The notes under the pieces were generated by a model, which made no database searches, had not been told where the DNA came from, and saw nothing but the letters and a program-made list of their open reading frames with translations. A stretch of DNA of 62,023 nt, counting the filler, from Dirinaria sp. TL-2023a (taxonomy: Eukaryota), in NCBI GenBank assembly GCA_051941275.1. It is 4 parts of 4 records of this genome, joined end to end, with 100 filler letters (N's around TTAATTAATTAA, not from the genome) between each part and the next. Parts side by side here need not be neighbours in the genome. Positions count along the whole stretch, not along the records: positions 1 to 15,463 come from JAVEBF010000546.1; 3 more parts are not named here. One strand, 5' to 3'. This document shows, in pieces, positions 1 to 18,795 of this stretch. The stretch's first letter is position 1. Every line of letters starts with the position of its first letter. The position numbers and the translations under genes were made by a program.

Positions 1-718
1 TCTGCACCTGCATCAGGTGCATCAAGAATCATGCTACCATTGCGATCCTCTCCACGTTATCGCCAAGACGTTCACTTGTTGTCGGAGACGCATGCCACCG
101 CCATTAATCAAAACACCGCCAACCAACAGCCAGTTCAGACTCTATATCAATAATGACCCACAAAAGATCTACATGGAATTGCCTCATAATCATCTACTGC
201 GCGACCAATATAACCCTCCACAGCAATGATCCATGGAAAGTCTACAGAGGGTTCTCCTACGGCAAATTTACTGTGGAAAAACCCGTCCCGAAGTTCGATC
301 TGCCGCACACCCCAGGCGTTGCGGGAACATGCGGATGACTGCCTCATGATCACGAAAGGTACCTTGGCTGCTATATTGCTGGCTAGATTGGAAAATATTG
401 GACGTATTCAGCTGGTTACGAGCTCATATATAACGAACTCGAATGAAAGGCTTGATAGCAATGCTTTTGTAGCGAACGTATCGAGAGGACAGAAAGGACT
501 ACTGTAGACCCCATGTAGCGGTCATAGCGCAAGAGAATTATAGGCAAGCGACTTTGGTACCAAAAAATTCAAGTGCCATCGTCATGTGCAGACTGGCCAT
601 ACCCAATTGACGCGGAGTAGTGGTGGCTTCTTCACCGGAGCCGTACCTGAACTGTTATATAACTTGTGACTTAACCCTTCATTGTTGGATAACCTCATGC
701 ACGATCTGGGAGTTTCGG

Positions 719-1786
719 TTACTCAATCAACATACTATCGCCGAACATGTCGAACTCGTATCCACCCTTCTCGGTGATCTCATCATAGCTGCGCATAACA
801 AGATCTTTGCCGGCGAAGGCTGCCGTAAGCACAATGTGGCTGGACCGCGGCCGGTGGAGGTTAGTGAGCAGCACGTCCACGACCTTGAATTCGAATCCAG
901 GGTAAATGTAGAGATCCGTCCAGCCCGCCTGCGCTTCCACTGTGCAACTCGTTTCTTTGCTGGCCGCAAGCGACTCAAGAGTTCGCATGACGGTCGTCCC
1001 GACGGCGATAATGCGGCGTCCTTCCGCCCGGGCCCGATTGATTTGTGTTGCAGCCTTGTCGTTGACCTCGAAGTATTCAGATCTAACCTTATGGTTCTCG
1101 ATCTCTTCCGCACTGATATGACGGACTGCAAGGACCTCGGTCGCTCCAACATGCAACGTAATATAAGCCATCTCAACCCCCTTAGCCGCAGCTTGCGCCA
1201 GTAGCTTCTGAGAAAAGTGAAGTCCGGCCGACGGGATCTCTAGAGAGCCTGGCGCCTTGGCATATACAGAGCGATAGGCTTGAGGCGTTTCCTTCCATTG
1301 TGCCGGATTAAGAGGGACTGTCTCGTCGAAGCGCTCTCCATATTGATCAAGCGTCGGCGTTAATAGTTCAATGGGTTCGAACCTCGCCTTCCAAAGCTCA
1401 TCGGGCTGCGATTCGAGAAAGCTGCAAGTTAGCCGGTCGTTGTCGGTTGAAGTCAAATTGAACCCTGGCTTGGCCGACAGCTGCTCAGACTTGATGCCGA
1501 CAATACTCATGCCGTCCGCCTCATGGCCGTATACGGTTATCTTCGCAGATTCACTGCCACTCTGGAACCGCAAGGTGTTCGAAAGCATGTAGCTGTCATT
1601 CAACACTAGAAGATCGCCTGGCCGAAAATAGTCGCAGATGCTCGTGAATACTGTGTGTTCGATCTTTGAAGCAGAGCGAGTCAGCACAACCATCCTTCCG
1701 CTATCGCGGCTTTTGCCACGCAGCTCAACAGGGTCATTTGGCATGATTCTTGAGTCGACATTGAAATCGAACTCTTGAGTCTTCAT
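719..1786 (-). CDS. queA: QueA-like S-adenosylmethionine:tRNA ribosyltransferase-isomerase family protein (bacterial type, intronless)
   Basis: 355-aa uninterrupted ORF with QueA family blocks in the expected order: FDF..P, GDLLVLNDS, Y.SVYA..PGS.E.PSAGLHFS, ITLHVG, RIIAVGTTVMRTLES, T.LYIYPGFEFKVVD.LLTN.H.P.S, GDSMLI at the C-terminus. Confidence 0.9.
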   Translation of the reverse strand: MKTQEFDFNVDSRIMPNDPVELRGKSRDSGRMVVLTRSASKIEHTVFTSICDYFRPGDLLVLNDSYMLSNTLRFQSGSESAKITVYGHEADGMSIVGIKSEQLSAKPGFNLTSTDNDRLTCSFLESQPDELWKARFEPIELLTPTLDQYGERFDETVPLNPAQWKETPQAYRSVYAKAPGSLEIPSAGLHFSQKLLAQAAAKGVEMAYITLHVGATEVLAVRHISAEEIENHKVRSEYFEVNDKAATQINRARAEGRRIIAVGTTVMRTLESLAASKETSCTVEAQAGWTDLYIYPGFEFKVVDVLLTNLHRPRSSHIVLTAAFAGKDLVMRSYDEITEKGGYEFDMFGDSMLIE

Positions 1787-1910
1787 GATTTCTCTGTCCG
1801 TTCAAGTCTGGTGACGTGAATTGCAGCTAGGAAGGAAACTGGTCAAGTACCAGGAAAGCTGTTGCAATGGTAGCTTGGTGTCTGCTTGAATTGGGAAGAA
1901 GGAGCCAGCC

Positions 1911-1917
1911 ATTTATA
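1911..1917 (-). promoter_or_regulatory. Putative TATA box (TATAAAT) of the queA-like gene
   Basis: + strand atttata is TATAAAT on the - strand, about 125 bp upstream of the ATG at 1786. Confidence 0.4.
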
Positions 1918-2712
1918 GGCATTCTGAAGGGGTGGCATGCGCATGCAAATCAAGACCATTTCTGCACCAGCCAAATACATCACAAAAAGGGCCGAGATTG
2001 ATTGATCCGAATATCGGTCATTGCCAGCACCCATACAGACGCCTTCAGTACGTCCGGACTCATTCAGTCGTTGCAAACGTATGCAGACCAATGCATATCC
2101 ACGGGAATGAAGACCCGCTAAGTTGCATAGTCTACTCCAATACAGGTACAAGGTCCTTCAAAACAGATGCGAGGCAATGGAATCTCGACCTTATGTTGGG
2201 CCTGCACTTATCAAGCAAGGAGCAAGCAACGTCAGTTCCATTTCTCTGAAGTGTAGGCCAGGAAAGCATGACCAGTTGATCTCTCAACACCCAATTGTGG
2301 GAGGATGCCGGTGCCATGTAGATCATGTCGCATAGTAACATGTACGGAACCAGCAAAAGGACTCTACCCTTGGCCAAGAGCTTCAAGACCCGAGCGCACG
2401 GAGAGGCGACAATGGAGTAGCGGCGGTAACATGAAGTAGAGCGTTGTAGAATTGAGCAAGCTCCGGACAGAGCTCCTATTGAGTGGCCATGCGTGGTTCA
2501 ACCGGCTTTGTTTGGGGTCTCGCTAAGCAGATTACCCCTTTCCTAATTCGAGACTGCCCTGCCGGTCGGGCTTTTACCCACGGCGTTCTCATGCGTGTAT
2601 GATTTTCGTTAGGTTCCTGATTTGTCCTGATTGGAGTTTGTGTAAGAAGAACGAAGCACAACGACAATCAAGCGATGATCGCTTGTCTTCTGCATTTGAG
2701 ATTATAGCGCTA

Positions 2713-2869
2713 GGGTATCCCATAAATTGGTGGAAACCGTACCACGGGAATTAGGTCTAAGCAATTGACGGAGGCTCTCTCATTCGCACTCCGGGAAAGC
2801 TAGTGCATCTATAAGCCTTGCATAGGTATAATTCCCGGTTGTACGGTTTCCACCAATTTATGGGGTATC
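2713..2869. mobile_element. MITE-like element with terminal inverted repeats
   Basis: Perfect 24-bp inverted repeat CCCATAAATTGGTGGAAACCGTAC (2719-2742 and 2841-2864), extending imperfectly to about 40 bp, around a short non-coding core. Confidence 0.65.
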
Positions 2870-4863
2870 TTCCTCCGAAACTCTGTTGGCTGAGGCAGTC
2901 CAAAGCGCCGATACCGGCTTAGACAGAGCCCAAACAACAATAACAAGGCATTGATGATCTCAGAAATCATGAAGTAATACCAGCGCTCTCAAATGACATT
3001 AAGCTACGAAACAAGCAGCGATCAGTCAGGCAGAAGTCTTGCAAGGAGAAGAGTACGGAAAGGTGTCAAAAGACATATAAGGAGGGTGGTTCTCTATGAC
3101 CTCGAAAGTAGGAGAAAATATCTTCAAACCGTGTCGCTTACGAGTACCTCGTTCCGAATGAATCCGAAGCTGAAGGGAACGATGCTCAATCCCTGCCCTA
3201 GCCACGCTTCCCCACTTGCGGCGTGATCGGTACCTTGGGTTAACTCCACGAAGGTAGAGAGCGATAGATCTCCAACCAGAACCATACTGTACAAGGCTTC
3301 CAGGGATACACAAGTGCAGGATTTCGGCAGCTACCGCATCTCCACCCGGGTAGTCGTGACTCCAGAAACTGTAAGCCTCAAATTTGGAGCTTCGGCGTTC
3401 CTTCGAAATCTTAATTCCTCTTCAAATAAAAAATCGCATGACCCTAGTCCACATATACAAGTGATGTATTGGGAGCGATAACTCCGCTATGCCCGCCACG
3501 AAAGGTTTGGCGATGCGTGTGTAGGCAAGAGATCTGCATCCAGTTCGGGGTGCATCAAAGAGCACGAATATACACACGGTTGTTACTGGTCGAGAGTCGA
3601 TGTCTGCATGACTACGATCATACAGAGTCCTGCGGACTGGGCTGGGGTCGTCGGGCACGGGAGTATCTGGATCTTCGAATGGCACTGAAAGCTCCTGGTT
3701 CAGAATCATCTGAGTTTGTGTGTGTCGAATCGCATTGCGGAGTTTTGATCCAGGCGCATCCAGACCAGTGAGTAGTACTGCATTGAATGTCGTAATGTCC
3801 TCCGACTTTCCAGATGCAGGCCCATACTACAACGGAGTACAACCAGCGAGTCGAGTACGAATCTCATGCGCTTCGCAGCCAGAACCAGCAAGGTCCCCGC
3901 ATTTATATCGTGTTCCCCGCTTATTAGCTCTAGTGTTGACGAAATTTCACTTATAGGTCACGCCATGTATTCGAAAGCCCGCATCTGCTCGTGTTCGCTA
4001 GTCATTGGCTCTAGTCTTGACGACAAACCTGCGACGTAGATGTAGGTGTGCATCATACCATGTATGCGAGAGCCCTGCCCTAGCAGCTAACCCTAATAAA
4101 ACCTGCACTTCGTTTTTGGGCCTGGGAACAATCTTGGATACGGTAGTCCGCCTATCAGGACACGCTCGACGAAAGAATTATAGCACTGCCTTCTTGACCA
4201 GAGTAACTCACCAGCTTCCGAGTAAAGGAAACCTAGAAAAACATTCACAAGCAAGAGTCATAAAGACCCTCAAGTCACAAGTTTCAATGCCTCGTACATC
4301 CAGGTGCTCGGTATAGAGGGAGAATAAGTTCTGGCTAAAGCAGATTAGCTGCACCGGGGATGCTGAAATTCCTACCCGCCTCCAGACGCAACCTGAATCT
4401 GGTTCTGAAATCCCGAAAGCCAGTAATTGGAACATTCAAGCGAGAGCGTCTCAGCAAATTGTTATTCTCCTTCTTCTTCCACCTACGACAGCTGCTCCAA
4501 ACTATTAGTATGCGTATCTCGAGCGTCACAAAGGACCTCCAAAGTAAAATTGCAAGGACTTCTACTATTCAATCGCAGATGAGTTACCCATAGAAAGCCT
4601 GGTAAAGCGCTCTCGATTCTAGCTATTCTGTCCCTTTGGAGCTCCTTAAATCAGGTTGCCTCAGGGCAGTTCGCATCCATCTGAAGCAAATACAGATTGT
4701 CTGAACAGTAACATGTATCCTGAAGTCTGTGCCGAATGACGTCTGTATACTGTCTATGACTCAGTCTTAAGGTAGACTGCGGGAGGATGCCCTTTTGAGA
4801 CCCTCAACGCTGTATTTTACGCAAGATCCACTTTTTAACATCGCCGAGAGTGTCCGTGTACTT

Positions 4864-5233
4864 ACCTTATTGTATAGGCCGCCACTGCGGCCACACCACT
4901 CTACTCTACTGGCACACACCCTCCCGTGCTGATGTATCCGATCCCTTGGATACCTCGAAATAAAGTATATTCACTTTTCTGCTTTGACAGTGTGGGTTTC
5001 AATCAACGACGATTTCATGAGATGACGATGAAATGATTCACCACGAACGTGCCATCGTCAAATACGCAAATCGTGTAAAGTAGGTCAGAGATGTTACAAA
5101 AAATTACTTTTGAGAGAGGTATTGATCGATGAACACAATGAGTGGGGAGAGCGGTGTGGTAGCATAGTGAAGGTGGTGTGGCAATAGAGTTCCTTAGGGT
5201 GGTGTGGCGGCCGTGGGATCCGTTATATAAGGT
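4864..5233. mobile_element. Degenerate TIR element relic (possibly pogo/Fot1-like, non-autonomous)
   Basis: Ends align imperfectly as inverted repeats (ACCTTAT...CCAC.GC.GCCACACCAC.CTA); GGTGTGG subrepeats occur three times at 5153-5208. Confidence 0.4.
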
Positions 5234-5364
5234 TTGCTGAGACCATGTTCTTGCTTTGCTTAGAGGTACTTTGAATTTTTTTTCTCGAGTTATTTTTTAT
5301 TTAAAGCAGTGGCTGAACGTCTGTTGCTTTGCCACTTCCCACCTGGTATCAAAGGCCTTATAAA

Positions 5365-6836
5365 ATGACCAAAAGCGCGCCGTGGGGTCTCGGTTGGCGG
5401 TCCAAAACACCTTTTATCGTGACCACAGTTGCTCTTGGTCTATTTACTGACCTTTTTCTCTATGGTCTCCCCCTGCCGCTTCTCCCATACATATTGGAAG
5501 ATAGACTTCACGTGCCTCCGACGAGAACACAAATTTACTCGTCGAGTCTTTTAGCTGCTCACACACTTTCTTCTTTAGTTTTTTGCCCTATTGCTGGGGT
5601 TCTTACGGACAAATTCTCGGCGCGGAAAATACCTTATCTCATTAGCTTGCTTGCACTGCTGCTAGCAACAATTCTTTTTTTCTTAGGTGACAATATGGCA
5701 ACCCTCGTCATGGCCCGTGCATTACAGGGATGTACAGGCGCCTGGGTGTGGACGGTGGGTCAGGCAATACTGATCGATACTGTGGGAGCCGAGAATGTAG
5801 GCAAGGCGACAGGCTCTGTTCGTATGACTTCGCAAGCCTTTTTTGACTTAAACGCTTATCATCTTCCGTATAGATCTATGGTACGATTTCTCTCGGCGTA
5901 GTGGCTGCGCCTGTGCTAGGCGGCATTCTTTACCACAGAGTCGGGGTTGCGGGACCACTTTCGCTAGGATGTTCGCTTTTAGGAGTTGACTTGATCATGC
6001 GGCTTCTCATGGTCGAGAAGAGAACCGCTGCTGAATTAGGTATCAATAAAGGAGAGCCTGCAGAACAAGGCCAACGTTCTGAGGATGCCTGCGAAGCAAG
6101 TGCAGAGGACTCTTTGCTTAAGACGCCACAAGCTCAAGCCTATCTTATTCCGGCAGAGCGGCCATGGGTGTTACAGTCGTATCCTATCCTGTGCTGCTTC
6201 AAAGATGTTCGAATGCTAACCGCAAATTGGATCACTCTTATACAAGCAACATTACTGAGCACTCTCGATGCAACAGTACCAACAGTGGGCGAAGAATATT
6301 ATGATTTCAACTCTCTGCAAACAGGATTACTCTTTATTCCAATCCTCGTGCCGGGTCTGATGATAGGGCCCGTTGCTGGTCGGATAACTGATCGGCGAGG
6401 GCCTAAATCCATTGTGGTTTGGGGGTTTGGACTTCTTGTACCTGTTTTCATTCTCCTACGGCTTGTGCAACCCGGAGGCCATATTCGAGTTTTGATATAC
6501 TGTATCCTATTGACCCTCTGTGGAACCTGTCTGGCCGCCACCAATCCTCCTGCTCTCGTCGAGCCTCTCTTGGTGATTGAGAAATACCACAAGGCTAATC
6601 CGGATCTCTTTGGTCCAAGAGGACCATATGGCCAGATTTCCAGCATCACCGGGCTCGTATATAACGGCGGTACGGCGTTGGGCGCACTTCTAGGAGGTGC
6701 CACGAAGGATGCTGTAGGCTATGGGAACATGAACTTGGTCACGGCTGCCCTTTCGTTTACGACAGCTTTGCTAGGTTTATTGTATACGGGTGCTAAGCCT
6801 GTGGACAAGCCTGTGAACAGAGAAGATCCGTCTTGA
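5365..6836 (+). CDS. MFS transporter (amine-transporter/MFS_1-like), 2 exons
   Basis: Exons 5365-5817 and 5874-6836 join in frame across a GT..TAG intron. Many hydrophobic helices; MFS motif A-like GVLTDKFSARK and GRITDRRGPK; N-terminal W.L.WRS..F...TV..GLFTDLFLYG. Confidence 0.88.
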
Positions 6837-7880
6837 AGACCTCGCACCCAGATTTGTCAATTCAACTTAGGAATCATCTAGCTCGTTATTGCTTGGTAGT
6901 AACAGATACTTCAGCTCGGAATGTAGATGTAAGATGTAAACGTCAAAAACGTAGTATTCATTGCTCGCTAGCATGACAGATATACAGGAACAAATTGATT
7001 GTGAAGACTCGAATGAGGACAGTGGTAAAATGAACCTCGTATACAAAGGTACTTACTATTTATTCCTGACTGATAGCGACTCGGCAATGGAAGAGAGAAA
7101 TAGACTATGAAGGCTGAAAAGAACGAAAGAAGTACGATTTACGCAACGTGTAGCCTTCGACCGCAATATCGCACCAAGACAACGAAATGCAGAGGAGATC
7201 GAAGCTCGTCTTAGACTTAAATACCTTAGGTACCTTTAGTAGGTACTCTATGCGAAAATCGTCCAACAACCCTATTAAAACCCTAGAATTAACTCTCTGG
7301 TACCTCTTGCCGCAATTAATGCTCCAACGCCAGAGGCAAAGGCCAATGTAAAAAGGACTACGTTTGTTCGCTATGGTACCTTATGTGGGGCGAGGTTATA
7401 AGGTTTACTCGCGATTTAATTGGTGGAGAGTGTAGATAGCCGTTTAACGATTTCCGAAGGGGAAAAGCTCAGAGTACTAAGTTGACATAATCGGGAATTA
7501 TCTAGTGAATGCCGAGATGCCCTAGCGCCAGGATCTTATCTACGCCGAAGCTTGAAGGGCCCGACAATCCTAATTACTAAAACAGGCTTCCAACACATCG
7601 AAGTCCAGCTGGTCTGGTCGACCGTGTCCACAGGAACCACTATCTTTCTATACAACCTGGCTACATATCCCAAATACCGATGACGAGTCTCCAAAGCGAT
7701 CGCCCTACTTCAGCCACTCTCTCCAGCCAAAGCTTCCCGAGACGATAAATTCGACCATCTTGACCTCCAACTCCTACTCCAACGATACGGAAGAGTCACT
7801 ACACTACACTTCACTCGTATCTTTGAGCAGAAGCATCCAGGGTTATGCGGGAAGGGCATAGGTCGATATGAGAGTGAAGG

Positions 7881-10048
7881 ATGGGCAGCCCCGCGTCTGA
7901 ATCGTCCAATACTTCACCCCTTCAACAGGCTGGAGCCGCAAAAGATAGAAATCTGAGTCGCAAGACAGCACATACAAGGCAATTCTGGAAGCTGCGGCTC
8001 AGGCCAGATGATGATGATGCCCCCCAGGATTGGTGGTTCGCTTCTACCGCCATTCCGCTGCTTGCGGCGACTACAGGCCCTTTGGCCAATGTGATGTCCA
8101 TTGCCGCTCTGATCACCTCTTGGAGAGTCAACTACGACCCTGAACACCCTGGTGTAGACTCATATGGGGTCGGATTCAAAGATCCACGTTGGTGCATTGG
8201 GCTGAATGCAGCCTCTTTGGTTTGCGGCTTTGCTGGTAACGCTTTTCTTCTGTTCAACTTCACCAGAGCTGTACGATATATCGTTGCTCTCCCTATGACT
8301 ATAATTCTTTGGTACTTTGCTACTGGTATTGTAAGTTCAGAGTCGCCCTGCCCAGGTACAGGGCTAACGTTCGGTCATGGAAGCTTATGGGTATTACTAT
8401 ATCAATGCACGAGTTCGCTCCGCCTCACCGCCCAGAACAGACATATTCCCAAGGATTCTGGCATGCTGTTATCGCTGCTGTATTATACCTGGTCTCGTCC
8501 ATGTTGCTCATGGTGAACATGCAGGGTTATTTCTTCGGACATTATCGTCAACACTTTGAACTTACTGACGAGCAGCGGAACTTGATCCTGCAGACTATGA
8601 TGTTCTTCATTTGGCTTGCTGGAGGTGCAGGAGTATTTGCTAGGGTCGAAGGATGGTCGTTCGTGGATGCGCTCTACTTCTGTGACGTGACCATCCTTAC
8701 AGTCGGTTTTGGCGACTTCCATCCTACCAATGATGTCGGTAGAGGACTGGTTTTCCCGTACTCCGTCGGAGGCATAATCATCCTTGGTTTGATGGTCAGC
8801 AGTATCAGGAACTTCGCGCAGGAAATAAGCCACGATAACATTATCAAGAAGCATGTAGAAAGGCGGCGGGTGAATACTATCGAGAGATCGGTGCCCACAG
8901 TATTCGAGCCACAGGAGCACCAAATAGCATCAGCGGCTCGATTGCGCCAGACTATCTCCCGCCCATTCAATATGAAGAAGGAGCGCACTACTGCCGCGGA
9001 CTTCCATCCCGACACCTTGCTTGATGACCTGCCGAATAAGAAGTCGAAAACTAAGACCTTCAGAAAGGCACCGATTGCAGCCACGAGAAACACACTGAAG
9101 CGAGTGAGAACCCGTAAGCAAAGGCTTATACTACTGTATGAAGAGAAGGATCGCTTTACTGCAATGCGTAACATCCAGAAAGGGACCGCCAACTTCAAGA
9201 AATACTCAGCTCTAACCATGTCAATAATCGCCTTTGGCCTTTTGTGGTGTGTGGGCGCGATCGGATTCTGGCGTGCTGAACAAAAATCGCAAGGCTTGTC
9301 TTACTTCCAGGCGCTCTACTTCTGCTATGTGTCTTTGTTAACAATCGGCTATGGCGATTTGAGCCCGACAAGTAATGCAGGCAAGCCTTTTTTCATAGTT
9401 TGGTCTTTGATCGCCGTGCCCACCATGACAATATTGATCTCTGACATGGGTGACACGGTCATCGCGAGCTTCAAGAGAGGTACATTTACTTTGGGTGACT
9501 GGACTGTTCTGCCGAAAGCGGGTCTATATCGATCTTTCGTGGAGCGGCATTCCTGGCTTCTGCACTGGCTGCAAAAGAAAGCCGAAGAGAAAGCTGAGAA
9601 GCAGAGAATCAGCGAAGGATTCCGTCCTGGCCCAACTGACGATGAGGAAGATGTGCCGCCCCAGGCCAAGACATTGGAAGAGATTGCAAAAGAGCAGGAA
9701 GAGCTAAGTGAGCACGCGCTTGCTCAGAAGCTCGCCATCGCCATCCGACGCACGGCCAATCATCTCAAAGCTGAACCACCACGAAAATACACTTACGAAG
9801 AATGGGTGGAATATACCCAGCTTATTCGCTTCAGCCGATGCTCGAAGGAAGAGCTTGAAGAAGAGGAAGAAGAGGAGGGCTTGATCGACTGGGACTGGAT
9901 CGGCGAGCAAAGTCCTATGATGGCCGAGCAATGCGAGAGTGAATGGGTACTAGATCGGCTATGTGAGAGCCTGAATCGGTACATGCGCAAGCAAGGCAGA
10001 GCCAATGGAAATGGGAAGAGCAAAGTAGATGAAATTAGGCCAGCATAG
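7881..10048 (+). CDS. TOK1: Two-pore outward-rectifier potassium channel (TOK family), 2 exons
   Basis: Exons 7881-8330 and 8384-10048 (intron GTAAGT..GCTAAC..AAG). Two K+ selectivity filters TVGFGD and TIGYGD; N-terminal WW.AST.IPL.AAT.GP.AN. Confidence 0.93.
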
Positions 10049-12699
10049 CGACTGACTTGTACATATTCTATAGTCTATAGGGTTTCCTTCTTCGAGATAT
10101 TACAATAACGAGCTGATGAAAGGAGCTGAATCGACTATTGTGGGTGCCCAAATTTTCAAGATACCGATTCCGGAGTCCAGAAACGCCTGATAAGCCCTTT
10201 CAGGTACTACGTTTTCTAACGTCCAACGAGCTACTTGCCTCAAAAGGGTTAGGCGGCTACAAATCACGGGGCTGAAACCCCCTTCTAATGGCGATCTTGC
10301 TCATTCTTCCGCCATGGAGATCCGAAATCAAGGACGAACGCTCACATAGGTCAGTCAACATATCTAGGCAAAACTTTATAATTCTATCCACATGCCTCGC
10401 ATATGCAATTGCATAATATGGCCATCTCCCACTGGCATGCCTCCCTTCATTCCATAGAGTAAATTAAACCCTTTCCTATCCAGTCCGTCTTTAACCAAAC
10501 TCTTCTCTATCCCTTTCTTCAACAATCCGTTCCTCCGAATCCGTGCTAATTGTCAACTTGGATTCATACAATGGGACTTCCTTTCCACGATTCGCAACCT
10601 TAACTGCAAAATATTTTCTATCTTATGTTCTTAGGAATTATTTCCCTTAGTAGCTGCGCGAAGGAGGTTTTCATACAGAACGCAACGATATCATACGGTG
10701 AGGTTTAATTGATTTCTTATTCCTTGCCCAGAATGATTCTCGATTCGGCAATCCATCCCACAATCTGCTCAATGATAAACTTCATAGCGAAGGCTCTTTC
10801 CCTGTTTTAGGGCCATCCAATACTCGAAGGAGTGACCATACTATTGCAGGCCAAAACCCAAAATGAGGGGAAGTGGAATCGTATTCATTTTTTCCACAGA
10901 GTGTCAGTACGATGCCATCTTACTGTAACAATAGATGGCTCCTCACTCGAAGAGCCAGGTGCAATGGCCGTGGATGTAAGTAGCTTCGAGCAAAAGATTG
11001 AATCTCCGTGAGATATCTCAGGTTCGAAGAAACTCGTCTTTCTCGCGTTGATATCAACTGATTTGAATACTAAGTCCTACTGTACGGATCATAAGTCCAT
11101 GCGTACTGCAAGCTATGATATCACTCGCGGATATGTTCAATGCGAACTTGGAGAAACTCAACGTAACCAACACAGTTTTCTGAGTATGAATTGTACTTAC
11201 CTTTAGCAGATACCAGGGATTAAGAGAAGATAGCACAAGAACAAGACTCATGGATTGTGGAATTGGAAAGGATTTTCGTGCCGAGGTTCTATGCTCGGCG
11301 ACTTTTTCTTCACCAGCACAACTTTCTAGTGCATCATTACTCTACGCTAGACCTTGTAGGGCCTAAATGAGACCATGGCTATCTTTCTTGAACTGACCGC
11401 GCTAGTTCCAATCCTTATAGACTTCAGAGGATGCGTCGACATATTATACGCTAAGTTAAGAAGACAAGACTCTGCTTTCTCTATCATCGTTCCAAACACT
11501 CGGTCCAACGAGATCCCAGCTTTGAAACATGGTTTCAAGCTTTTGCAAAACGTAGATTATTATAATATACGCGATCATTCCTTTCCAAGCGATAGCTGTA
11601 TATAAATGAGAGTAGAGCGCAGCTACGAAGAATCCACAGCAGAGAGTTGACTCAGTCGGCCAATGTTAAATAAAAACCCGCTGGCAAAATATGAGAAATG
11701 GAGAAGAGCAGTACTACGTCAACTGCTTTGAAAAGATACAACATTTTCGGGGACGGAGCAGCCATCTTGAGCATCCGCCAAAGACCATTCATAGTGATGG
11801 AGGTTCCGCCAATCTGATCAGTTCTGAGATTTCAGCAATCAGGTGCCAATAAGGTCTCGGCGATCGATCGAATCAGAGCAATAATCAGAAGAGCTGGCCG
11901 TGCCAGAACAATGTGAACCGAACTACAGACACACTCTCAGCCAAATGTAAAAGATCAGAAAGCCTATTAGCAATGATCAACATGATCAAGAGCATATAAA
12001 GTTAGCTTTCGCAGCGCTCTAATGAGCCTTAGACGAATGTTGACAGGTGGCAAAGGAGAACTCAGAGGTGAGATAAATATTGAAAAAAGAATACGAAGAC
12101 GGGCCTGATATCACCCACCAGACATGATGCTGAGCGACTTACATGATACAGCATGAAGTTATCGATAGAGCATGGACGTGACGCCATTCAATATTGATGA
12201 GAAATTAAGTTCTAATCAGCGATTTTGATCGACAGACGACATGATTATCAAGAGCCCCGACATCAATAGAGGCTCCAAGCCTTAGTCCGAATACAAGCAA
12301 AGCAAAAAATGGTATGCTCACTTTCGCCTTTGATGAAAAGAAGATCGAAAAGGCAAAAATGCTGACACAAATGCTGTAAAAAATGGAACGAGGAGGCTTA
12401 GAAACACAGTGATATTTGGGCGTGCCAAAGCAAACGGACAAGAAAAAATGGTCGCTCAGATCAAAGATTGCAAAGCCCGAGAGCGGTAAGTAAAATCTCG
12501 CGATGATGAGATATTTTTCTAATAATTACGCCAATAAGCCAGGTCAAGCACGCGTCTCTTCTGGCGCCAGAAAAAGAAATATCGTTGACTAGGACGAGTG
12601 ATTGTGGAAGATGACGGAAATTCCGATTGAGAAGACGTGTCCGATACTGAGGCCGAACAAGGTACGTTTCTTGTATACCCGGTTTTCATGTCGCTATAG

Positions 12700-14300
12700 C
12701 TTCTGTCTCTTCGCATTGAACCTGTTTAGGTGACATCATGGCCGCCTTTGATGTGACTGTCCCGGCGGCCAAACAGCTGCCTTGGATTCGGCACCTCATG
12801 GTTTTATTCGGTCGATAGATACTTATTATGGCATGATCATTCTTTTTCACTCTTTTATGAACATTGTTTCATACAAATCACGTAAACAGATCTTGGACAT
12901 TAACAAGGAAGATACGTTAATCAGTAAAGAGAAAAGACCTGCGTCTTCAATCCTAAAAGCCCTCCACAGTCAATCAACTTGAAAGTCAAGAAATCCCCAA
13001 GTCAGGATTATTAAGAACACAGAAATGAAATCTTATCCAATTACACCCTTGCTGAAACCAAAAACGGATATATCAACTCAATGATTACTTTGAAATCCAA
13101 AGACCATTATATACACCTCCGCCGGACGGAGTCTCGAAGACAAAAGATACTGGATTTTACGCAGACTGGGGCTTTTGAAAGACACGTAGCCTAAGACAAG
13201 AAGTCCTTAGCACATAGAACGAAAAAAGGAAAAAAAAAAAAAAAAGAAAAAGAAAAAGAACTCGCGACGATGTTCACGTTGCAAGCTTTTCTTTCACAGA
13301 GTCTTGTGTTGAGTCGTCGAATTTGCGAGATTCAATGAGAAGAATAAATTTTTTTGCAGTGTTGGATATGAAAATCAGTTACTCATTGAACATGTGCTCA
13401 GTTACACAGATAGACAAATACATTACGACCATAGCTCAGATATACTTTTCAGGGAATTTTCTCCCCTTATTTCCTACTCAGGAATGATAGCTTATTAGGA
13501 CATACTTGCACCTTCTACCTCAACACGTAGAACAGGTTTCAGCCACTTACAAGAAAAAAATATCAAATCAGTAAAGAATGAAAAAGAATCGACATCGCAA
13601 CCAGTTCACCCTTCACTTTCGTGAGAGAATTCCGCAGAGATAAGCACCTCCTTTCTTCGAAAAGCGCTTTGACGCGAATTTATATGCTCTCTATTTGCCA
13701 TTACCGCCTCAAATTAATCTTCAAGCTGCCAAATCCGAGGAAGTGCTCACCCGTCGTTGCGGAATTAAAGTTATGAAAGACTCGCTGCATCTCAATCTTT
13801 TTCGAGACTTTGTTGACCGCTGTTGCGGCCGCGAGTTGACGGCGCCCACTTGCTGCATGTGTACTCGTACGGAGATGTATGGGTCGAATGAGCAACAGGT
13901 GATCGTGAAGGAACGCCATTCGGTTGTGAATATCGAAGCTAAGCTGTTCTTTGAAGCTTGTCATAAAATTGAGAAGTTGCAGCATTCCGCCACCGAATTG
14001 CGAGACGTATTCCCGCTACAAGATGTCTAGAATATCAGATATCCAGCAGTCTATCGCGCTGATTCTTCGAAATATATCTCGAAAGAAAAGATACATTCTC
14101 ATTCCCAGTCAACATAATCGTCAGGAGGAGGTCACAGACTTCGATGAGTAGTAGAACATTTGTCGAGCCAAAACATCAAGAACACAGGCAATCATCTTTT
14201 TAGATCTTTCCGAAACGCAAAAGCAGAAAGAATAAATCTACCAACGTTGTAAAAATGCGGAAAACTGGGTGTGCATTTCATCAATCACTTTATTTATCCT
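12700..14300 (+). mobile_element. Heavily decayed DNA-transposase relic (pogo/Fot1-like DDE), boundaries approximate
   Basis: AT-rich, stop-riddled region. The fragment at about 13040-13190 reads YTLAETKNGYINSMITL...DHY...FERHV, reminiscent of the S.NGW...W..HF...DG..SH core. A frameshifted RCK.CGKLG knuckle-like remnant lies near 14246. Confidence 0.35.
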
Positions 14301-15463
14301 CCCCTAGTCAAATGTTGGTAACAAGAAAAAGAAACTCAGAATCTAGAACAGAAAACAGCAAGAAAACCGAACTTGCAGAACTCCTTTCCCTCCGCAACGG
14401 GTCAAAAAATTACGCTATTATATCGCGATCATAGCCTCACATATTCCTTCCAAAGTTTTTTCTACTTCTTTCTTTCTCAGTCATAACATAATCTGAATTT
14501 AAAATGTATACATTTAATCCGACTCTACACGGATACAAGCAAAATATACTACAACTTTAAAGGTCTATATTTCTTTTATCTCCAATCAAACTATTCAGAA
14601 ACAAATGATCGAATCATGATTTTGAGAATGACATTTTAAATGCATACTCTTATCCTCTTTTATAAAAGAGGACTTACGAACAGATCTAAGAAGTTACAAT
14701 GCCTAATCTCGAAATCCCCATGCATCAGCGGTTTCAATATACCTCTCTAAAGTAAAGCATTGCCCTCGCCTGAGGCATGCTAAAAGAAAGAAACGAATAC
14801 AAACAAGCACCTTCTTTCTTTTCTCTTTTAAATCCAGTATCGAAGATCAAATCTCCCTGCATTAATACAATAACATCAGTAGAATCCCGTCTTTGCAGCA
14901 GTAATCAACTCCATTCCAGTAATTTGCTTAATTTCAATTAATCCATAGTCATTCATAATCCGCACCCCCTGCCTTTTTCCTGTAGTTAAATACCAATAAC
15001 ATCCATCGATAACATATCCGAAAATTTAATCTGAACGCCCGTTTTAGCATAGCATTATGCATTCTTGATCTTGAAACACTTAAAGAGCCATATACCACCC
15101 CCTTTCTTCTTCCTACTCCAAACCCACAAAATTTCCCGCCTTATCACCCCTACCTTAATAAAATCAAACCCTACCACCACTACATCAAAAGCCTCGAAAA
15201 CTGGTATAAAACCAGACCATCGTATATTCCTCACACTGGCACTCGTACAGAATCTCGATAGAGCTCCCACTATCTGAACTCCGAGTTCAAGTCGGTTATT
15301 AATCGAAAAAAGAGGCTCGTATAGCGTATGCATGCATGCAATTCTAAAATCCACATATTTGAGGGGAGGGGAGGGGGATACTCAAATCAATTCTCTTACC
15401 AAGAAAGATAAGAATCACAATCCATTCCCCATCCCATTTCATTTCCATCCTTCCTCTAAAACC

Positions 15464-15563
15464 NNNNNNNNNNNNNNNNNNNNNNNNNNNNNNNNNNNNN
15501 NNNNNNNTTAATTAATTAANNNNNNNNNNNNNNNNNNNNNNNNNNNNNNNNNNNNNNNNNNNN
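15464..15563. other. Artificial contig spacer N44-TTAATTAATTAA-N44
   Basis: 12-mer with stop codons in all six frames, flanked by 44 Ns each side. Confidence 0.98.
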
Positions 15564-16917
15564 GATAGAAAAGTGGATGGCTAATAATGCTCGGAGATCA
15601 ACAGCTCCAGCCTCGACGGACCAGAGAAAGGGTGTGTAACGAATGCAACGCACCAACAGCGACAAAAATGGGAAAGTAAGTAAGGTGGAGTAATAATCAT
15701 TAGGTAGTAAATTTCATTCATTATTCATGAGAATTGAGATGATTATTTCACGTCGCCGTCGTCGCTCACCTTGCCTGCTCTCTGCACGCCGCTCTCCGCT
15801 ATGACGCCAACGGCTGGCCAAGCCGGCGCCCCACGAGTCCAGGCTAGGGGACCGCATCGATAGAATCTGCATGCTGATCGGAGAGATGGACGCAGAAACC
15901 AGCAATAAATGAAAGAGCTGGGAATTGAATAATTAAATAATTGAATAAAAAAAATTTCAATCTGAATACCAGAAAGCGCGGATGGAAGACGGTAGGAAGT
16001 AGAGTAGCGAGACAATCATCCTGCGATGTGCTCATTGGCGCTGCACATATAAAGGGACCTACAAGGACCTATATACATACTGTACTGTAGCTGCCAGGAT
16101 CCATGCTACATCCTACGTCTTACTACTATCTCATCCATCGTGTCCGCAAGGCTGGGCTGACTGTTCCCCAATATTGCGCACAGCCAGTTTCACGTGGCGA
16201 GACTTGCAAGATCGACGTCCAAGTCGCCGATCATGTCTCAAGGTAGCGTCGAACCACCAAGACACATACGTGCAGCCGGGGGACCCCCGGAGGATTGGCA
16301 AAGAAACGTGCGGCGTCACGACTCACCGGCGTGCGTGCCTGAGCCCTGACAGGAATCCTCAGGGTTGAGCCCGTTAGGGCCAAGTGCCGCACCAATGACC
16401 AGCACCACCACAATGACGAGCATCTCTTACCCGCCCCCCTCAGCCCGTAATCTGATACTGCGTGACACCGCCGATCCTCGGCCTGCATCATCGGAATCTC
16501 CATTTCAGTTTTCACCCTTCCACGGGTTCGAATCTTGTCCGCTATCGCTCGGGGGCGGCTGTGCGGCTAACCAGTCCACGTATTCTTCCCTTGTCCTGAC
16601 GCCCAATGACGATGCTTCAATAAATAATGGATCATGACCGGCCCAGTGCGGACGGAGTGACGGAACTTTACCATTCATCGATGTCAGGTCTTGCAGATGT
16701 TGTGAAGGTATTCTTCCATTCGTGCTTGCCGATTGCTATCTCGACCAAGCCCCACTCTCAATGACCATGGACCCCGGTAAGGTTCTCAGAGCTTTGATCA
16801 AGCGGCATCTCGCATGGATCCCGGTGGATGACGGATTGACGGGGGCACGAAATGACTCGCGCGTCCTTGGGAAACCACGAGGTCCTTTCCGGATCAATCC
16901 TCGTCAGTATCAAACGC

Positions 16918-18795
16918 TTACAGGCTGTCTTCCCTCCACCGACTGCGGACCCGTTGCCATCCTTCCTTTTCGTTCAGTCCTCCTCGATGCTCCATGCCCA
17001 AACCTCGCTCGACCCATTCTTGGCTGCCCATCTCGCTCAAGCGGCTGAGAGCTCGGGAGAACGCGAAGCGCTCTTCGTCCCCAGTGAACAGGTTGCTATT
17101 CTTCAGCATCTTCATGTTCATCCCTAGATCATCCATCATTTGGCGCATCACGTCATCAACCCCTTCATGCTCCTTGGCTTCCTTTACCAGACCCTTTTGA
17201 CGGCCGCCCTCTAAAGCGTCATCAATCTCGGACGCTGACATGAACAACTGGGACAGAGGCATTTCCATGGTCAAGACGAGCTTAGCCTGCTCGAGTCAGT
17301 CGGAAGGTTCCTCACGTAATTATGCATAGACCTACATGGCTTTCGTAGACGGCGTCGATGAAGGTGATAAACCTCCGGGCCCAATCTCTTTCCCGATGCG
17401 TCATGCCTGGCACATCAGTAACGATAAAGGCGTCGTAGTTCCTCATCAACTCCAAATAGTCTGCAGCACTGGTAGCTTTGCCGATCAATTCATAAAAGCC
17501 GAACTTAGCAGCCTTGCCGCTTGCACTTGGTACTTCGATGTCTCGGCCCCAGACGCTATGCGTCGCCTTATGTATCGGGTCGTTGTCAAGATCGCCCAGG
17601 AAACGAAACCATTTGTCTACATGGCTAGCGGCTGCCTTGTCGAGCGGGTGATGGTAGACGCCGGATGGAGGTCGGGGTATCTTGCGATAATCGGTGGTTG
17701 AATCAAGGTTTAGGACTCGGAGTCGTGTCTTAAGTAGATTAATGCAAGGGATAAACGAGGCACGCTGTATGCCATTTTTGTACAAGTCATCGGGGTGACG
17801 GTTAGACGTTGTGACTAAGACAACCCCGTGTGACATGATGGCCTCCAGTAAACTAAAATTGGTCAGTCCATCAATTGCCGCTTGATCATAGCTGACAGCA
17901 CACCTCCTTAAAATCATCGCGTCAGCGACATCAGTGCATTGGAACTCGTCAAAGCACAGTACGCTGCCCTTCTCAGCAATGTCTGCAGCAACGAATCGAA
18001 TGGCATCCAGATCGCTACCGTGTTTCACTTTCATGGCATGTAGCCTTCGATGTACGTCTTGCATGAAATTATGGAAGTGGATTCTTGTCTTCGACGTTAT
18101 GTTATTAGGCAGCGTGTCGTAGAACATATCCATCAACATCGTCTTCCCACTCCCCACGTCACCATACATATACAAGCCCTTGGGAGTGTTCGAGGGTATC
18201 TGGTTCGACTGACTCTTTTGTGATCGCCGGTTAAAAAGGGACGCAAGAAAGGATCGTGAGTGCGATCTCAACGACTCAATGCTCGGATGCACGACTCGGG
18301 GTGCTTGGTATTCCTTCAACATGTCATGGAGGTCTTGCAAGCTCTGCACAATTCCTGTTTCAAGGGTTTGTTTAGAATGATGTCCAAATCCTCGGGTGGT
18401 TGACAGACGCGTACCTCGCTGATGTTCGTCATCTCTCAGCTGGTGGGAATGCACTCGTTCGTCGTATTCGTCCAAAGGTCCCCACTGGTTAGGGTTTGCT
18501 ATGTCGAACGTCAGCCACCTCGCAAGCTCTACCGTCGCCCATGATGGAACATACTGTGAGCAACAGTTGCTAAGGGTCTCGCGATCGCTGAAGCTGATGA
18601 TGCTGGTTCCCATATTCCCTGTTTGCTTGTTCCCAACCCTTGGGAGACCCATGCACCATTGGGCCTGCGGGAAAAACTCCTTGCATCTCTGCTGAGAGAA
18701 CGCGCGCATATCAGGCCTCGTTGATATTGCCAATTTAAAAAGCGGTCACCACCCGCAGCAGTGTAAATGCATTTGAATCGCACGACGAGCCGCAT
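16918..18795 (-). CDS. AFG1: AFG1/ZapE-family mitochondrial ATPase, about 5 exons
   Basis: Walker A GDVGSGKT, RIHFHNFM, Walker B VLCFDEFQCTDVADAMIL, TSNRHPDDLY, C-terminal DEERFAFSRALSRLSEM. An Arg-rich presequence-like first exon starts at ATG 18795. Confidence 0.93.

Follow-up and report, generated by a model that had tools for sequence, protein, structure and literature searches.

The window analysed here, the whole 62,023-nt stretch of DNA from Dirinaria sp. TL-2023a (GCA_051941275.1), carries what is probably a functional lichen-ascomycete gene for an old QueA-family paralogue of bacterial origin. On balance, we favour the reading that its product is an S-adenosylmethionine (SAM) enzyme that probably acts off tRNA and uses a non-tRNA amine as the acceptor. 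The gene lies on the first contig of the window (positions 1-15463), where we distinguish the following features:

719..1786, minus strand: coding sequence of the QueA-like paralogue, 355 aa, intronless, with an ATG start and the stop codon at 719-721
315..718, minus strand: probable 3' untranslated region of the transcript that carries the QueA-like ORF, placed tentatively from RNA-Seq contigs
1787..5316, no strand: spacer (~3.5 kb) from which the QueA-like and MFS genes diverge, with no recognisable coding sequence
5317..6836, plus strand: MFS transporter gene, given as context, with MFS_1 in two frames
7878..10045, plus strand: two-pore (TOK1-like) K+ channel gene, given as context, with Ion_trans_2 in two stretches

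Family and predicted fold

The Pfam family PF02547 (Queuosine_synth) spans the ORF protein, residues 4-354 being aligned with positions 2-322 of the 322-position profile at 300.9 bits (E = 1.4e-89). As the gathering cut-off of this family is 25 bits, the protein is a family member in the broad sense. In a PDB sequence search, it matched the solved QueA structures 1vky (E = 1.7e-60), 1yy3, and 1wdi along the full length of these entries. The AlphaFold model of the protein (mean pLDDT 86.2, pTM 0.87) yielded only four PDB matches at E <= 0.001, that is, chains A and B of 1vky, 1yy3, and 1wdi, with TM of 0.55-0.71, and the predicted structure is the QueA fold, an alpha/beta domain with an inserted beta-barrel. 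ESM Atlas matches were QueA-named bacterial clusters only. The protein starts with MKTQEFDF, as do its bacterial relatives, and has no N-terminal or organelle-targeting extension. Hence, the ORF is indeed intact, full-length, and intronless, as the sequence-only reading of this DNA had described it. Its queA-like identity holds at the level of the QueA family. It does not extend to canonical queA, as the protein falls under the NCBIfam equivalog cut-offs and into a separate paralogue clade.

A paralogue clade apart from canonical QueA

The NCBIfam scores of the protein were 254.7 vs. an equivalog cut-off of 324 for NF001140, 241.7 vs. 267.45 for TIGR00113, and 175 vs. 588 for NF002398; judged by these models, it is not a canonical QueA equivalog. 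Among Burkholderiales, the Pfam scores of canonical copies range from 327 to 452 bits, and those of paralogues from 269 to 306 bits. The paralogues form a clade with SH-aLRT support of 100 on a long branch apart from canonical QueA, and we have defined the clade by this placement, by identity of at least about 49%, and by class-specific columns. Its bacterial members come from soil Actinomycetota, Burkholderiales, a sphingomonad, and a verrucomicrobial MAG; those of the Actinomycetota and Burkholderiales are 64-70% identical to the window protein. Among 1.84 billion representatives at 50% identity, the clade has one full-length representative, at 554.7 bits, while the next full-length representatives score 322, 278, and 262 bits. 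By these sequence comparisons, the clade is compact, strongly conserved, and separate from canonical QueA, with the window protein as a member.

Canonical QueA (1VKY, 1YY3, 1WDI; TIGR00113/NF001140) and the window protein are alike in having a full-length match to the Pfam family, a two-domain fold, and a similar length (~340-350 and 355 aa, respectively). Moreover, 82 paralogues and 33 canonical QueAs have 57 conserved columns in common. The shared motifs, in the numbering of the window protein, are PxAGLHF (185-191), TLHVG (210-214), GTTxxRxLE (263-271), TNxHxPxS (308-315), and GDxML (349-353), and in a set of 37 sequences, 38 columns show no variation; this core consists of conserved columns, as opposed to proven catalytic residues. 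On the other hand, the window protein is only 33-37% identical to canonical QueA overall, with identity of 0.21-0.26 in residues 1-165 (the N-terminal and beta-barrel part) and 0.43 in residues 166-355, and it lies below both equivalog cut-offs of the canonical family.

Two further contrasts may partly be lineage effects, as 30 of the 33 canonical sequences are from Burkholderiales: 29 class-specific columns have a different conserved state in the paralogues than in canonical QueA (e.g., R to G87, H to E336, R to E344, and F to D346), the window protein having the clade consensus at these columns by construction, and the mean net charge is -13.0 in 41 fungal rows and -12.6 in 21 bacterial paralogues vs. 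-2.2 in the 33 canonical QueAs. The window protein is thus about 10 charge units more acidic than canonical QueA, which would fit the loss of an RNA-binding surface.

Bacterial hosts and gene neighbourhoods

In bacteria, QueF makes preQ1, TGT puts it into tRNA, and QueA converts the resulting preQ1-tRNA to epoxyqueuosine. Canonical queA adjoins tgt, whereas the paralogue does not; the latter either supplements canonical queA or occurs in genomes without tgt or queF, and it is present in fungi. In particular, canonical queA (429-434 bits) sits beside tgt in Trinickia and Massilia, with the paralogue elsewhere in the genome. One canonical copy was present in 58 of the 61 sampled Burkholderiales, and the extra copy only in the query genome. 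TGT (PF01702) had no match in seven of the eight actinobacterial hosts and QueF was found in none of the five bacterial paralogue hosts, these genomes being drafts, one of them a MAG; the control for TGT was positive in all 14 reference genomes. The Nocardia host does have TGT. Full-length QueC was present in one of the five hosts, the matches in the other four being partial ones of 22-26 bits inside long ORFs. In bacteria, the paralogue is therefore decoupled from tgt and queF.

Of 27 bacterial-type loci, 12 have a flavin monooxygenase gene directly downstream of the paralogue, and one more has a remnant of it; the partner is absent in 15. The monooxygenase (~430 aa, Pfam Pyr_redox_3) lies no more than a few tens of bases away and is distantly similar to the MSMEG_0569 family (229.7 bits vs. 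a cut-off of 498). In four loci, it is followed in turn by a DAO-family FAD oxidase. The gene pair occurs in Nocardiopsis, Spirillospora, Actinosynnema, Massilia, Trinickia/Burkholderia, and metagenome contigs. The QueA-like proteins of these pairs belong to the same clade as the window protein, at 63-71% identity, and share with it the conserved and the class-specific columns, but no such monooxygenase partner was seen in the window or among named fungal proteins. The best 120 matches of the monooxygenase include no named fungal homologue, and tblastn found no match beside the window gene, where only 718 nt are available downstream before the contig end. Since the monooxygenase is absent from 15 of the 27 bacterial loci, from the named fungal matches, and from the window, it may say little about the function in fungi.

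Other neighbourhoods are different. In Kitasatospora, an AlkZ-like DNA glycosylase gene adjoins the paralogue in three loci, and ergothioneine genes are found nearby; as the Kitasatospora and Nocardia neighbourhoods differ, they do not provide a single pathway context. No PADLOC model of anti-phage defence matched either the paralogue or the three genes next to it in Trinickia. In PLSDB, the identities of the 91 matching records were all under 60%, with a maximum of 40%, which gives no sign of a plasmid-borne clade.

Probable function

To our knowledge, one enzyme acting on one substrate, preQ1 in tRNA, is known to perform SAM-dependent ribosyl transfer with isomerisation. As the fold and the conserved sequence core of canonical QueA are kept, the paralogue would still bind SAM and perform the QueA-type transfer and isomerisation, releasing adenine and methionine. 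However, preQ1 in tRNA is probably not its substrate, as the bacterial hosts mostly lack TGT and QueF. The acceptor would most likely be an amine outside tRNA, probably a small molecule. The downstream flavin monooxygenase, sometimes together with a sarcosine-oxidase-like FAD enzyme, probably processes the product further in many bacteria, while fungi appear to retain the QueA-like enzyme alone. The sequence-only reading had proposed selection for new 7-deazapurine or SAM-ribosyl-transfer chemistry. The second part survives, in that the data are best read as QueA chemistry put to use outside queuosine synthesis; the 7-deazapurine part finds no support, as QueF is lacking in all five hosts and TGT in seven of eight actinobacteria.

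The passages of published work that we have consulted (PMC1282579, PMC5699537, PMC9092360) deal with canonical QueA only, and describe it as a unique enzyme for its chemistry (PMC9092360) and as "found only in bacteria" (PMC1282579). In the literature outside subscription journals and the supplements of surveys of horizontal transfer into fungi, we found nothing on fungal QueA genes or QueA paralogues.

The enzyme could have departed further from QueA, cleaving or rearranging SAM without an amine acceptor, or targeting another macromolecule (DNA or a protein amine). This would agree with the 29 differently conserved columns, several of them charge changes, with the heterogeneous neighbourhoods, including the AlkZ-like DNA glycosylase in three Kitasatospora loci, and with the retention of the gene alone in fungi. 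Still, we consider it unlikely, as all motifs conserved across canonical QueA are present, the strongly acidic surface speaks against nucleic-acid binding, and no defence model was matched.

The opposite possibility is a true fungal QueA, which would build epoxyqueuosine on bacterial preQ1 that has been taken up and inserted into tRNA by the eukaryotic TGT. The salvage of queuine (QTRT1/QTRT2, Qng1/DUF2419) is, as far as we know, the sole queuosine-related route in eukaryotes and the only way in which a tRNA role could work. It has no need of QueA, and a Pfam scan of frames of at least 75 aa found none of its genes on contig 1-15463. Many fungal lineages have a eukaryotic TGT, and for this reason a tRNA role in fungi may remain. 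Lichen-associated bacteria could provide the precursors, and the full-length QueA fold with the conserved core would suit such a role, as would the public annotation of fungal orthologues as "S-adenosylmethionine:tRNA ribosyltransferase-isomerase"; this name and "Queuosine biosynthesis protein" are automatic, however, and presuppose the tRNA function. Against this, bacterial proteins 64-70% identical to the fungal ones reside in genomes lacking TGT (seven of eight actinobacteria) and QueF (all five hosts), and with the fungal and bacterial proteins so close, different substrates are improbable. Besides, the scores lie under the equivalog cut-offs, the protein is far more acidic than canonical QueA, no organelle-targeting extension is present, and the contig has neither an epoxyqueuosine reductase nor any other queuosine gene. 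Overall, we give this explanation little credence.

Distribution and origin of the fungal copies

Named fungal proteins account for 40 of the best 120 matches of the window protein, at 64-86% identity. The carriers belong to several ascomycete classes and Mortierellomycota, and include lichens, Aspergillus, Metarhizium, Mortierella, and others. Some of the orthologues reside on contigs of 1-5.6 Mb, those of Aspergillus, Cladobotryum, and Metarhizium being 3-5.6 Mb long, and at least seven independently assembled lichen fungi have the gene on contigs of up to 300 kb. The annotated orthologues from Aspergillus, Metarhizium, Tolypocladium, Alternaria, and Mortierellaceae, and the hypothetical proteins recorded for the lichen fungi Letrouitia, Xanthoria, Flavoplaca, Calogaya, and Pseudocyphellaria, fall with the window gene into a common starred clade, at 64-86% identity. 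All have the length of the window protein and are intronless so far as protein lengths show, with no difference in kind.

In the tree, 38 of the 40 named fungal rows are within one starred fungal clade (100*), and the window copy is in a starred 22-row clade with all seven named lichen fungi. A single clade of all 61 fungal and unnamed rows was not rejected (p-AU 0.50). When the tree is rooted on canonical QueA, the verrucomicrobial copy is basal, and the fungal (100*), actinobacterial (96*), and proteobacterial (89) clades form a polytomy in this quick tree, which points to no donor lineage. The fungal copies are therefore placed among bacterial branches, in agreement with the earlier suggestion of a bacterial-type gene, and we infer that the transfer was from bacteria to fungi. 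Under the scenario we prefer, the paralogue clade would have arisen in bacteria, and the gene would have entered fungi long ago, possibly only once, with subsequent inheritance, loss, and probably transfer from one fungus to another. Among lichen fungi, the gene has apparently been inherited vertically, and it is under purifying selection.

That this fungal lineage alone acquired the gene recently from a bacterium, whose flanking DNA would now be decaying around it, is very improbable. The ORF is intronless and of the bacterial type, its GC3 of 0.607 is somewhat higher than that of its contig neighbours (0.44-0.56), and its 3.5-kb flank has no recognisable genes, all of which would fit such an acquisition. 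However, the closest named relatives of the window protein are other lichen fungi (78-86% identity), while bacterial proteins reach at most 71%; contigs without an organism name reach 88%, the identity of the nearest tree row. The placement of the window copy inside the starred lichen clade, itself within the starred fungal clade, likewise speaks against acquisition by this particular fungus, as had been suggested from the sequence, and the flanks are dissimilar to every bacterial neighbour compared. A broad distribution across fungi had been named beforehand as the observation that would count against this suggestion, and it is largely what we see. Judging from the sequences compared, the distribution is broad but patchy and speaks against a recent or lineage-private acquisition.

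In the one clearly fungal metagenome locus with flanks (L022), the only gene upstream of a related copy is of the fungal NACHT-WD40 type, and the locus ends 40 nt past the copy. Another locus (L028) has a truncated copy only.

Genomic context

Contig 1-15463 is free of N, the first run of which starts at 15464. Besides the QueA-like ORF, the Pfam scan of the contig took in another 52 stop-to-stop frames with a length of 75 aa or more, of which only three were positive: two MFS_1 frames (5317-5898 and 5874-6833) and a frame with a double Ion_trans_2 match (8240-10045). The two MFS_1 frames are joined across a 52-nt intron, GTATGA...ATAG, at 5822-5873, read by eye. As the MFS gene carries a GT..AG intron, the contig is eukaryotic. 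The organism-named best matches of the K+ channel are all fungal, and since the top ones, with 60-68% identity, are from lichen-forming Lecanoromycetes, the contig can be assigned to a lichen fungus. K+ channel matches without an organism name reach 92% identity. The other three parts of the window contain ordinary eukaryotic genes.

Thus, the QueA-like gene is physically located in fungal DNA, and its position on one gap-free contig with spliced fungal MFS and TOK1 genes, as initially proposed, is borne out. So is the lack of bacterial operon neighbours: the Pfam scan of frames of at least 75 aa found no tgt, queF, queG, queC, or other such genes on contig 1-15463. By contrast, the proposal of decayed bacterial flanks finds no counterpart here. 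The spacer at 1787..5316 is merely devoid of Pfam matches in stop-to-stop frames of at least 75 aa, and of similarity to bacterial neighbours, as tblastn at E <= 0.01 with ten bacterial neighbour proteins (monooxygenases, DAO, APH, lectin, and others) gave no match in the window. The GC content is 0.527 in the ORF, 0.478 in the spacer, 0.46-0.50 in the contig, and 0.56-0.67 in the bacterial loci.

Although the gene is 718 nt from the contig end and lichen samples are metagenomes, a contaminant or a microbiome bacterial fragment mis-joined to a fungal contig is hardly credible, given the orthologues in at least seven independently assembled lichen fungi and on Mb-scale contigs of Aspergillus, Cladobotryum, and Metarhizium, the GC content of the ORF close to that of the contig and far from that of the bacterial loci, the best bacterial identity of just 71%, and the fungal-type NACHT-WD40 gene adjoining the related copy L022.

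Transcripts and selection

The whole ORF is covered, at 90-99% identity, by RNA-Seq contigs of a lichen metagenome (three runs of one sample in one study). These are assembled contigs of a related organism, each run has 5% of the sampled words, and DNA carry-over is possible, so the match is a hint that the gene is expressed. Two of the related-lichen contigs, at 404-788 and 315-788, extend from inside the ORF to ~400 nt beyond the stop codon and outline the tentative 3' untranslated region, whose bounds are approximate, the contigs being from another organism with 90-95% identity. No RNA-Seq contig covers the bins 2575-3042 and 3511-4914; such holes prove neither silence nor a break. Between 3042 and 3511, the depth is at most 1, from one run, and the coverage of the MFS gene is low.

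Compared with two relatives, dN/dS was 0.130 (154 codons) and 0.114 (63 codons), that is, about 0.12 on two fragments. Among the listed differences from the related RNA-library contigs, 23 of 27 are synonymous. Sequence similarity with relatives stops at the ORF boundaries. Judging by these codon comparisons, the gene is under purifying selection, and the earlier suggestion that selection has kept it intact stands.

Implications

The window gene itself is a modest finding, being one more orthologue of a family that is already present in public fungal genomes but unstudied. The family as a whole reveals a systematic annotation error, as proteins named "QueA" in fungi and actinobacteria probably do not serve queuosine synthesis. 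The family is also a clear case of an old bacterium-to-fungus gene transfer with patchy spread through fungi. Taken together, the conserved side branch, the hosts unable to make or install preQ1, the pairing with a monooxygenase in many bacteria, and the purifying selection in dozens of fungi point to an unrecognised use of QueA chemistry. More tentatively, the paralogues might represent a second reaction class of the QueA fold, in which a small-molecule amine would receive the ribose of SAM as an epoxy- or hydroxy-cyclopentyl unit, within a new metabolite or cofactor pathway that is completed by a dedicated monooxygenase in bacteria and has been exchanged between soil bacteria and fungi, lichen mycobionts among them; we regard this extended scenario as possible rather than probable. 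If true, a small-molecule counterpart of QueA would be new enzymology and would offer a handle on unknown carbocyclic natural products.

An intact QueA-family gene in a fungal setting

The four ∼15.4-kb pieces of the window meet at junctions 15464-15563, 31011-31110 and 46557-46656, each made of two runs of 44 N with 12 bases between them; no N at all occurs in the first piece (1-15463). Physical linkage to the QueA-like gene is limited to this first ∼15.4-kb stretch, which carries the following features:

719-1786, minus strand: QueA-like ORF, ATG start, 355 codons
5317-5898 and 5874-6833: two frames of an MFS transporter gene (Pfam match)
5822-5873: MFS intron, 52 nt, GTATGA...ATAG, bridging both frames (read by eye)
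8240-10045: two-pore K+ channel gene (Pfam match)

The Pfam domain PF02547 (Queuosine_synth) spans the QueA-like protein end to end (300.9 bits, E 1.4e-89), and three solved QueA structures match it over the whole length (1vky, E 1.7e-60; 1yy3, 4.5e-56; 1wdi, 3e-46). An AlphaFold model built from a 37-sequence alignment (mean pLDDT 86.2, pTM 0.87) has only four PDB matches at E ≤ 0.001, all of them chains of the same three structures. The family assignment is far beyond chance, and the earlier description of an intact, full-length QueA-family ORF holds. The protein reaches none of the three NCBIfam equivalog cut-offs for QueA (254.7 vs 324, 241.7 vs 267.45, and 175 vs 588 bits); the gene is not a canonical queA.

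When 52 additional stop-to-stop frames (75 aa or longer) in 1-15463 were compared with Pfam, only the MFS transporter and the K+ channel matched, and there were no queuosine-pathway genes. The best organism-named matches of the channel are all fungal, the top-ranked being lichen-forming Lecanoromycetes (60-68% identity); matches without an organism name reach 92%. The remaining three pieces encode ordinary eukaryotic proteins, e.g. AFG1, an SH3-PX-PB1 protein, SAC3, a kinase, HECT and lunapark. Given the ORF, the N-free piece, the MFS intron, the fungal channel matches and the eukaryotic neighbours, the sequence-only reading was correct in describing a gap-free contig with spliced MFS and channel genes and without queuosine neighbours. 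At the end of the first piece (14000-15500), GC falls to 0.36, GC skew is strongly negative (-0.26 to -0.36), and no frame of at least 75 aa has a Pfam match.

The ORF is as long as its relatives. Nei-Gojobori dN/dS, which had been proposed as a check on fungal homologues, is 0.130 and 0.114 against two partial related copies (L028, 154 codons, and L036, 63 codons, respectively). Lichen-metagenome RNA-Seq contigs (three runs of one sample from one study) cover the whole ORF and ∼400 nt past the stop at 90-99% identity; among the 27 listed differences within the ORF, 23 fall on the third base of a codon and 23 leave the amino acid unchanged, another 167 across the covered stretch being outside this listing. 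DNA similarity with relatives begins and ends at the ORF boundaries. The ORF composition (GC 0.527, GC3 0.607) is close to that of its neighbours (GC 0.48-0.50, GC3 0.44-0.56) and far from the GC of the bacterial loci (0.56-0.67). The intact ORF, dN/dS, RNA-Seq contigs, synonymous bias, ORF-bounded similarity and composition indicate that the gene is resident, constrained and probably transcribed, the RNA contigs being from a related organism and possibly including DNA carry-over. The related copy on the 56-kb metagenome contig L028 (3289-3750) retains only residues 201-354, with 92% amino acid identity to the window protein; very AT-rich DNA (GC 0.16-0.31 across 3 kb upstream) stands in place of its 5' half, and the copy looks like a gene under loss beside RIP-like or repeat DNA.

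Distribution

A word-indexed protein search yielded E ≤ 0.001 for 7748 of 8000 scored candidates; of the best 120 matches, 40 bear a fungal and 17 a bacterial organism name. Among these 120, lichen fungi (three Letrouitia, Xanthoria, Flavoplaca, Calogaya, Pseudocyphellaria) match at 78-86% identity, and other fungi, among them Mortierella and relatives, Tolypocladium, many Aspergillus, Metarhizium, Alternaria, Ophiobolus, Tirmania, Nannizzia and Trichoderma, at 64-81%. The bacterial ones (64-70%) come from Nocardia, Kitasatospora, Nocardiopsis, Spirillospora, Actinosynnema, a Pseudonocardiaceae MAG, Burkholderia, Paraburkholderia and Massilia.

A scan of bacterial genomes gave 18 loci with 49-82% identity over the best aligned segment (L016 and L017 being partial matches), followed by a sharp drop to a canonical Nitrosomonas QueA at 34%; metagenome loci repeat the gap (57-92% vs 33-34%). 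When 1.84 billion representatives at 50% identity were searched exhaustively with HMMER, 10802 matched at E ≤ 0.001 and 1750 at E ≤ 1e-30. At this level the entire paralogue clade is reduced to a single full-length representative (554.7 bits, 70% identity) and some fragments; the full-length ones ranked next score 322, 278, 262 and 261 bits, and the canonical bulk is reached near 175-230 bits.

The Paraburkholderia phenazinium paralogue (L010:9983-11353, 457 aa) has an internal glycine-rich, collagen-like insert (NCBIfam Scl-type matches at residues 177-254), which breaks the QueA match into two. A ∼78% identical copy on a metagenome contig (L034:3-717, GC 0.50) is spread over three reading frames, either as a frameshifted pseudogene or through sequencing errors. 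A third, separate QueA-like lineage occurs in Spirillospora (L069:7159-8175, plus strand) and Nocardia (L070:6812-7870, minus strand); the two proteins are 50% identical to one another, and the identity of each to the paralogue clade and to canonical QueA alike is ∼30%. A short-chain dehydrogenase gene adjoins both, in Spirillospora with an MFS transporter in between. As Spirillospora has no TGT match, this lineage may also be non-tRNA. Two large Salmonella enterica plasmids (H1, H2) carry a QueA-family gene with 40% identity to the window protein, compared with 34% for chromosomal enterobacterial QueA, and hence may represent another divergent lineage.

Phylogeny

The tree (IQ-TREE "quick", LG+C20+F+G4 by PMSF) comprised 85 rows: the window protein, 40 named fungal and 16 named bacterial sequences, 20 unnamed ones picked down the ranking, five bacterial-locus translations, and three canonical QueAs as the outgroup. 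One protein, P0101, was excluded (606 aa), and 43 of the 120 listed matches were unused. In this quick tree, the paralogues group in one clade (SH-aLRT 100), which a long branch separates from the outgroup. The phylogeny, suggested earlier as a check on transfer, places the verrucomicrobial copy at the base, and above it a polytomy of proteobacterial (8 rows, 89), actinobacterial (12 rows, 96*) and fungal (58 rows, 100*) groups. The fungal clade holds 38 named fungi, 19 unnamed sequences and the window. Tirmania, Entomortierella and P0052, the protein of a contig (L022) carrying a fungal-type NACHT-WD40 gene, fall outside the resolved groups; constraining all 61 fungal and unnamed rows to one clade is not rejected (p-AU 0.50), the constrained tree being 0.66 log-likelihood units better.

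The window protein lies in a starred 22-row subclade with all seven named lichen fungi, inside which three Teloschistaceae cluster (99*). Elsewhere the fungal topology is discordant with the species tree: one Mortierella copy stands amid ascomycetes, and Nannizzia and Trichoderma within the Metarhizium group, which suggests fungus-to-fungus transfer or contaminated assemblies. P0013 and P0089 both belong to Mortierella sp. GBA30; one Mortierella copy, amid ascomycete sequences, shares 81% identity with the lichen protein. For Actinomortierella, two assemblies show a pair of copies separated by two locus tags. This pattern reflects either transfer between fungi accompanied by local duplication, or contaminated assemblies.

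The sequences point to an old, possibly single transfer from bacteria to fungi; the lichen lineage would then have inherited the gene vertically, and its history elsewhere would be patchy. That the window gene is real and resident, belongs to the paralogue clade and came from bacteria long ago is very probable. Of the horizontal transfer proposed initially, the bacterial origin stands, with the fungal clade amid bacterial branches, but a fresh acquisition does not, as the family is old and wide, if patchy, in fungi.

Bacterial hosts and gene neighbourhoods

In Trinickia (G001) and Massilia (G002), canonical queA (429-434 Pfam bits) adjoins tgt, and the paralogue (282-300 bits) lies elsewhere. 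Among 61 Burkholderiales genomes (one, G031, flagged unpublished), 58 have exactly one match (327-452 bits), and an extra low-scoring copy occurs in the query genome only. Seven of the eight actinobacterial hosts, all draft genomes (three Kitasatospora, Nocardiopsis, Actinosynnema, Spirillospora and the Pseudonocardiaceae MAG), have no TGT match at E ≤ 0.001, or six of seven without the MAG (G070, flagged unpublished); Nocardia is the sole exception. QueF was found in none, and full-length QueC in one, of the five actinobacterial drafts checked. Therefore, subject to the draft status of the genomes, a preQ1-tRNA substrate cannot exist in most of these hosts.

A flavin monooxygenase (∼430 aa) is encoded directly downstream on the same strand in 12 of 27 bacterial-type loci (L002, L005, L007, L008, L009, L018, L021, L023, L024, L026, L027, L035), and L006 has a 49-residue remnant. 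It matches Pfam Pyr_redox_3 and Lys_Orn_oxgnase; the best NCBIfam match, the MSMEG_0569 family, scores 229.7 bits against a cut-off of 498. All organism-named close homologues (at least 55% identity) come from paralogue-bearing bacterial genera, and no named fungal one is among the best 120 matches. Two homologues with 41-42% identity (P0168, P0169) are from the ichthyosporean Sphaeroforma arctica and a eukprot entry without an organism name. In four loci a DAO-family oxidase, distantly similar to N-methyltryptophan or sarcosine oxidase, comes next. The Paraburkholderia phenazinium locus has a luciferase-like monooxygenase instead.

In Kitasatospora (L003, L004, L014; ∼8400-17600), an AlkZ-like DNA glycosylase gene is followed by the paralogue, a HEAT protein or aminotransferase gene, and egtA-D-like genes. 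The ergothioneine-type set of L003 comprises GCS2/EgtA, FGE-sulfatase plus DinB/EgtB, and Methyltransf_33/EgtD; L004 and L014 have GCS2, and L014 additionally GATase. Two Massilia loci and one Paraburkholderia locus carry, immediately upstream of the paralogue, a lectin gene of the OAA family with four sugar-binding repeats; in Trinickia such a gene is found at a distance of 9 kb:

L008:9009-9836, OAA-family lectin gene
L009:9065-9892, OAA-family lectin gene
L010:8608-9435, OAA-family lectin gene
L002:20042-20866, OAA-family lectin gene

Conserved core and possible function

We aligned 82 paralogues with 33 canonical QueAs, 30 of them from Burkholderiales, which limits class contrasts. Conserved in both groups are 57 columns, including PxAGLHF (185-191), TLHVG (210-214), GTTxxRxLE (263-271), TNxHxPxS (308-315) and GDxML (349-353). 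Another 29 conserved columns differ between the classes, e.g. R→G87, Q→R172, H→E336, R→E344 and F→D346, and mean net charge is -2.2 in canonical QueA, -12.6 in bacterial and -13.0 in fungal paralogues, the canonical set in both comparisons being mostly Burkholderiales. Compared with canonical QueA, the window protein has an identity of 0.26 (residues 1-60), 0.21 (61-165, the barrel) and 0.43 (166-355); compared with bacterial paralogues, the values are 0.62, 0.52 and 0.74, respectively. Judged from the alignment, the SAM-handling core appears to be retained, with the acceptor side remodelled and RNA-friendliness lost.

In QueA, according to PMC5699537, the ribose of SAM is transferred and rearranged, and adenine and methionine are lost. 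The paralogue would likewise bind SAM and transfer its ribose, with rearrangement, to a nucleophilic amine, releasing adenine and methionine; the acceptor would be something other than tRNA, most probably a small amine. The flavoenzymes encoded next to it in bacteria would supply this acceptor or act on the product; the fungal QueA-like enzyme would work alone. We consider it likely that the paralogue is not a queuosine-tRNA enzyme; QueA-type chemistry on a small molecule is a more tentative proposal, somewhat short of even odds.

The family and fold are already known, and fungal orthologues are public under automatic QueA names. QueA homologues are confined to bacteria according to a 2005 survey (PMC1282579), and QueA is called a unique enzyme for its chemistry in a 2022 review (PMC9092360); a full-text search, covering literature outside subscription and supplements, found no papers discussing QueA in fungi or QueA paralogues. 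The window gene adds a member to the clade, itself an uncharacterised variant of an enzyme type already known. The observation behind the sequence-only reading is confirmed, and its interpretation in part: the gene is of bacterial origin and probably kept for a purpose other than classical queuosine synthesis, but it was not freshly acquired, and nothing links it to the suggested 7-deazapurine chemistry. As a case of horizontal transfer it is ordinary; it is a good lead to new SAM chemistry.
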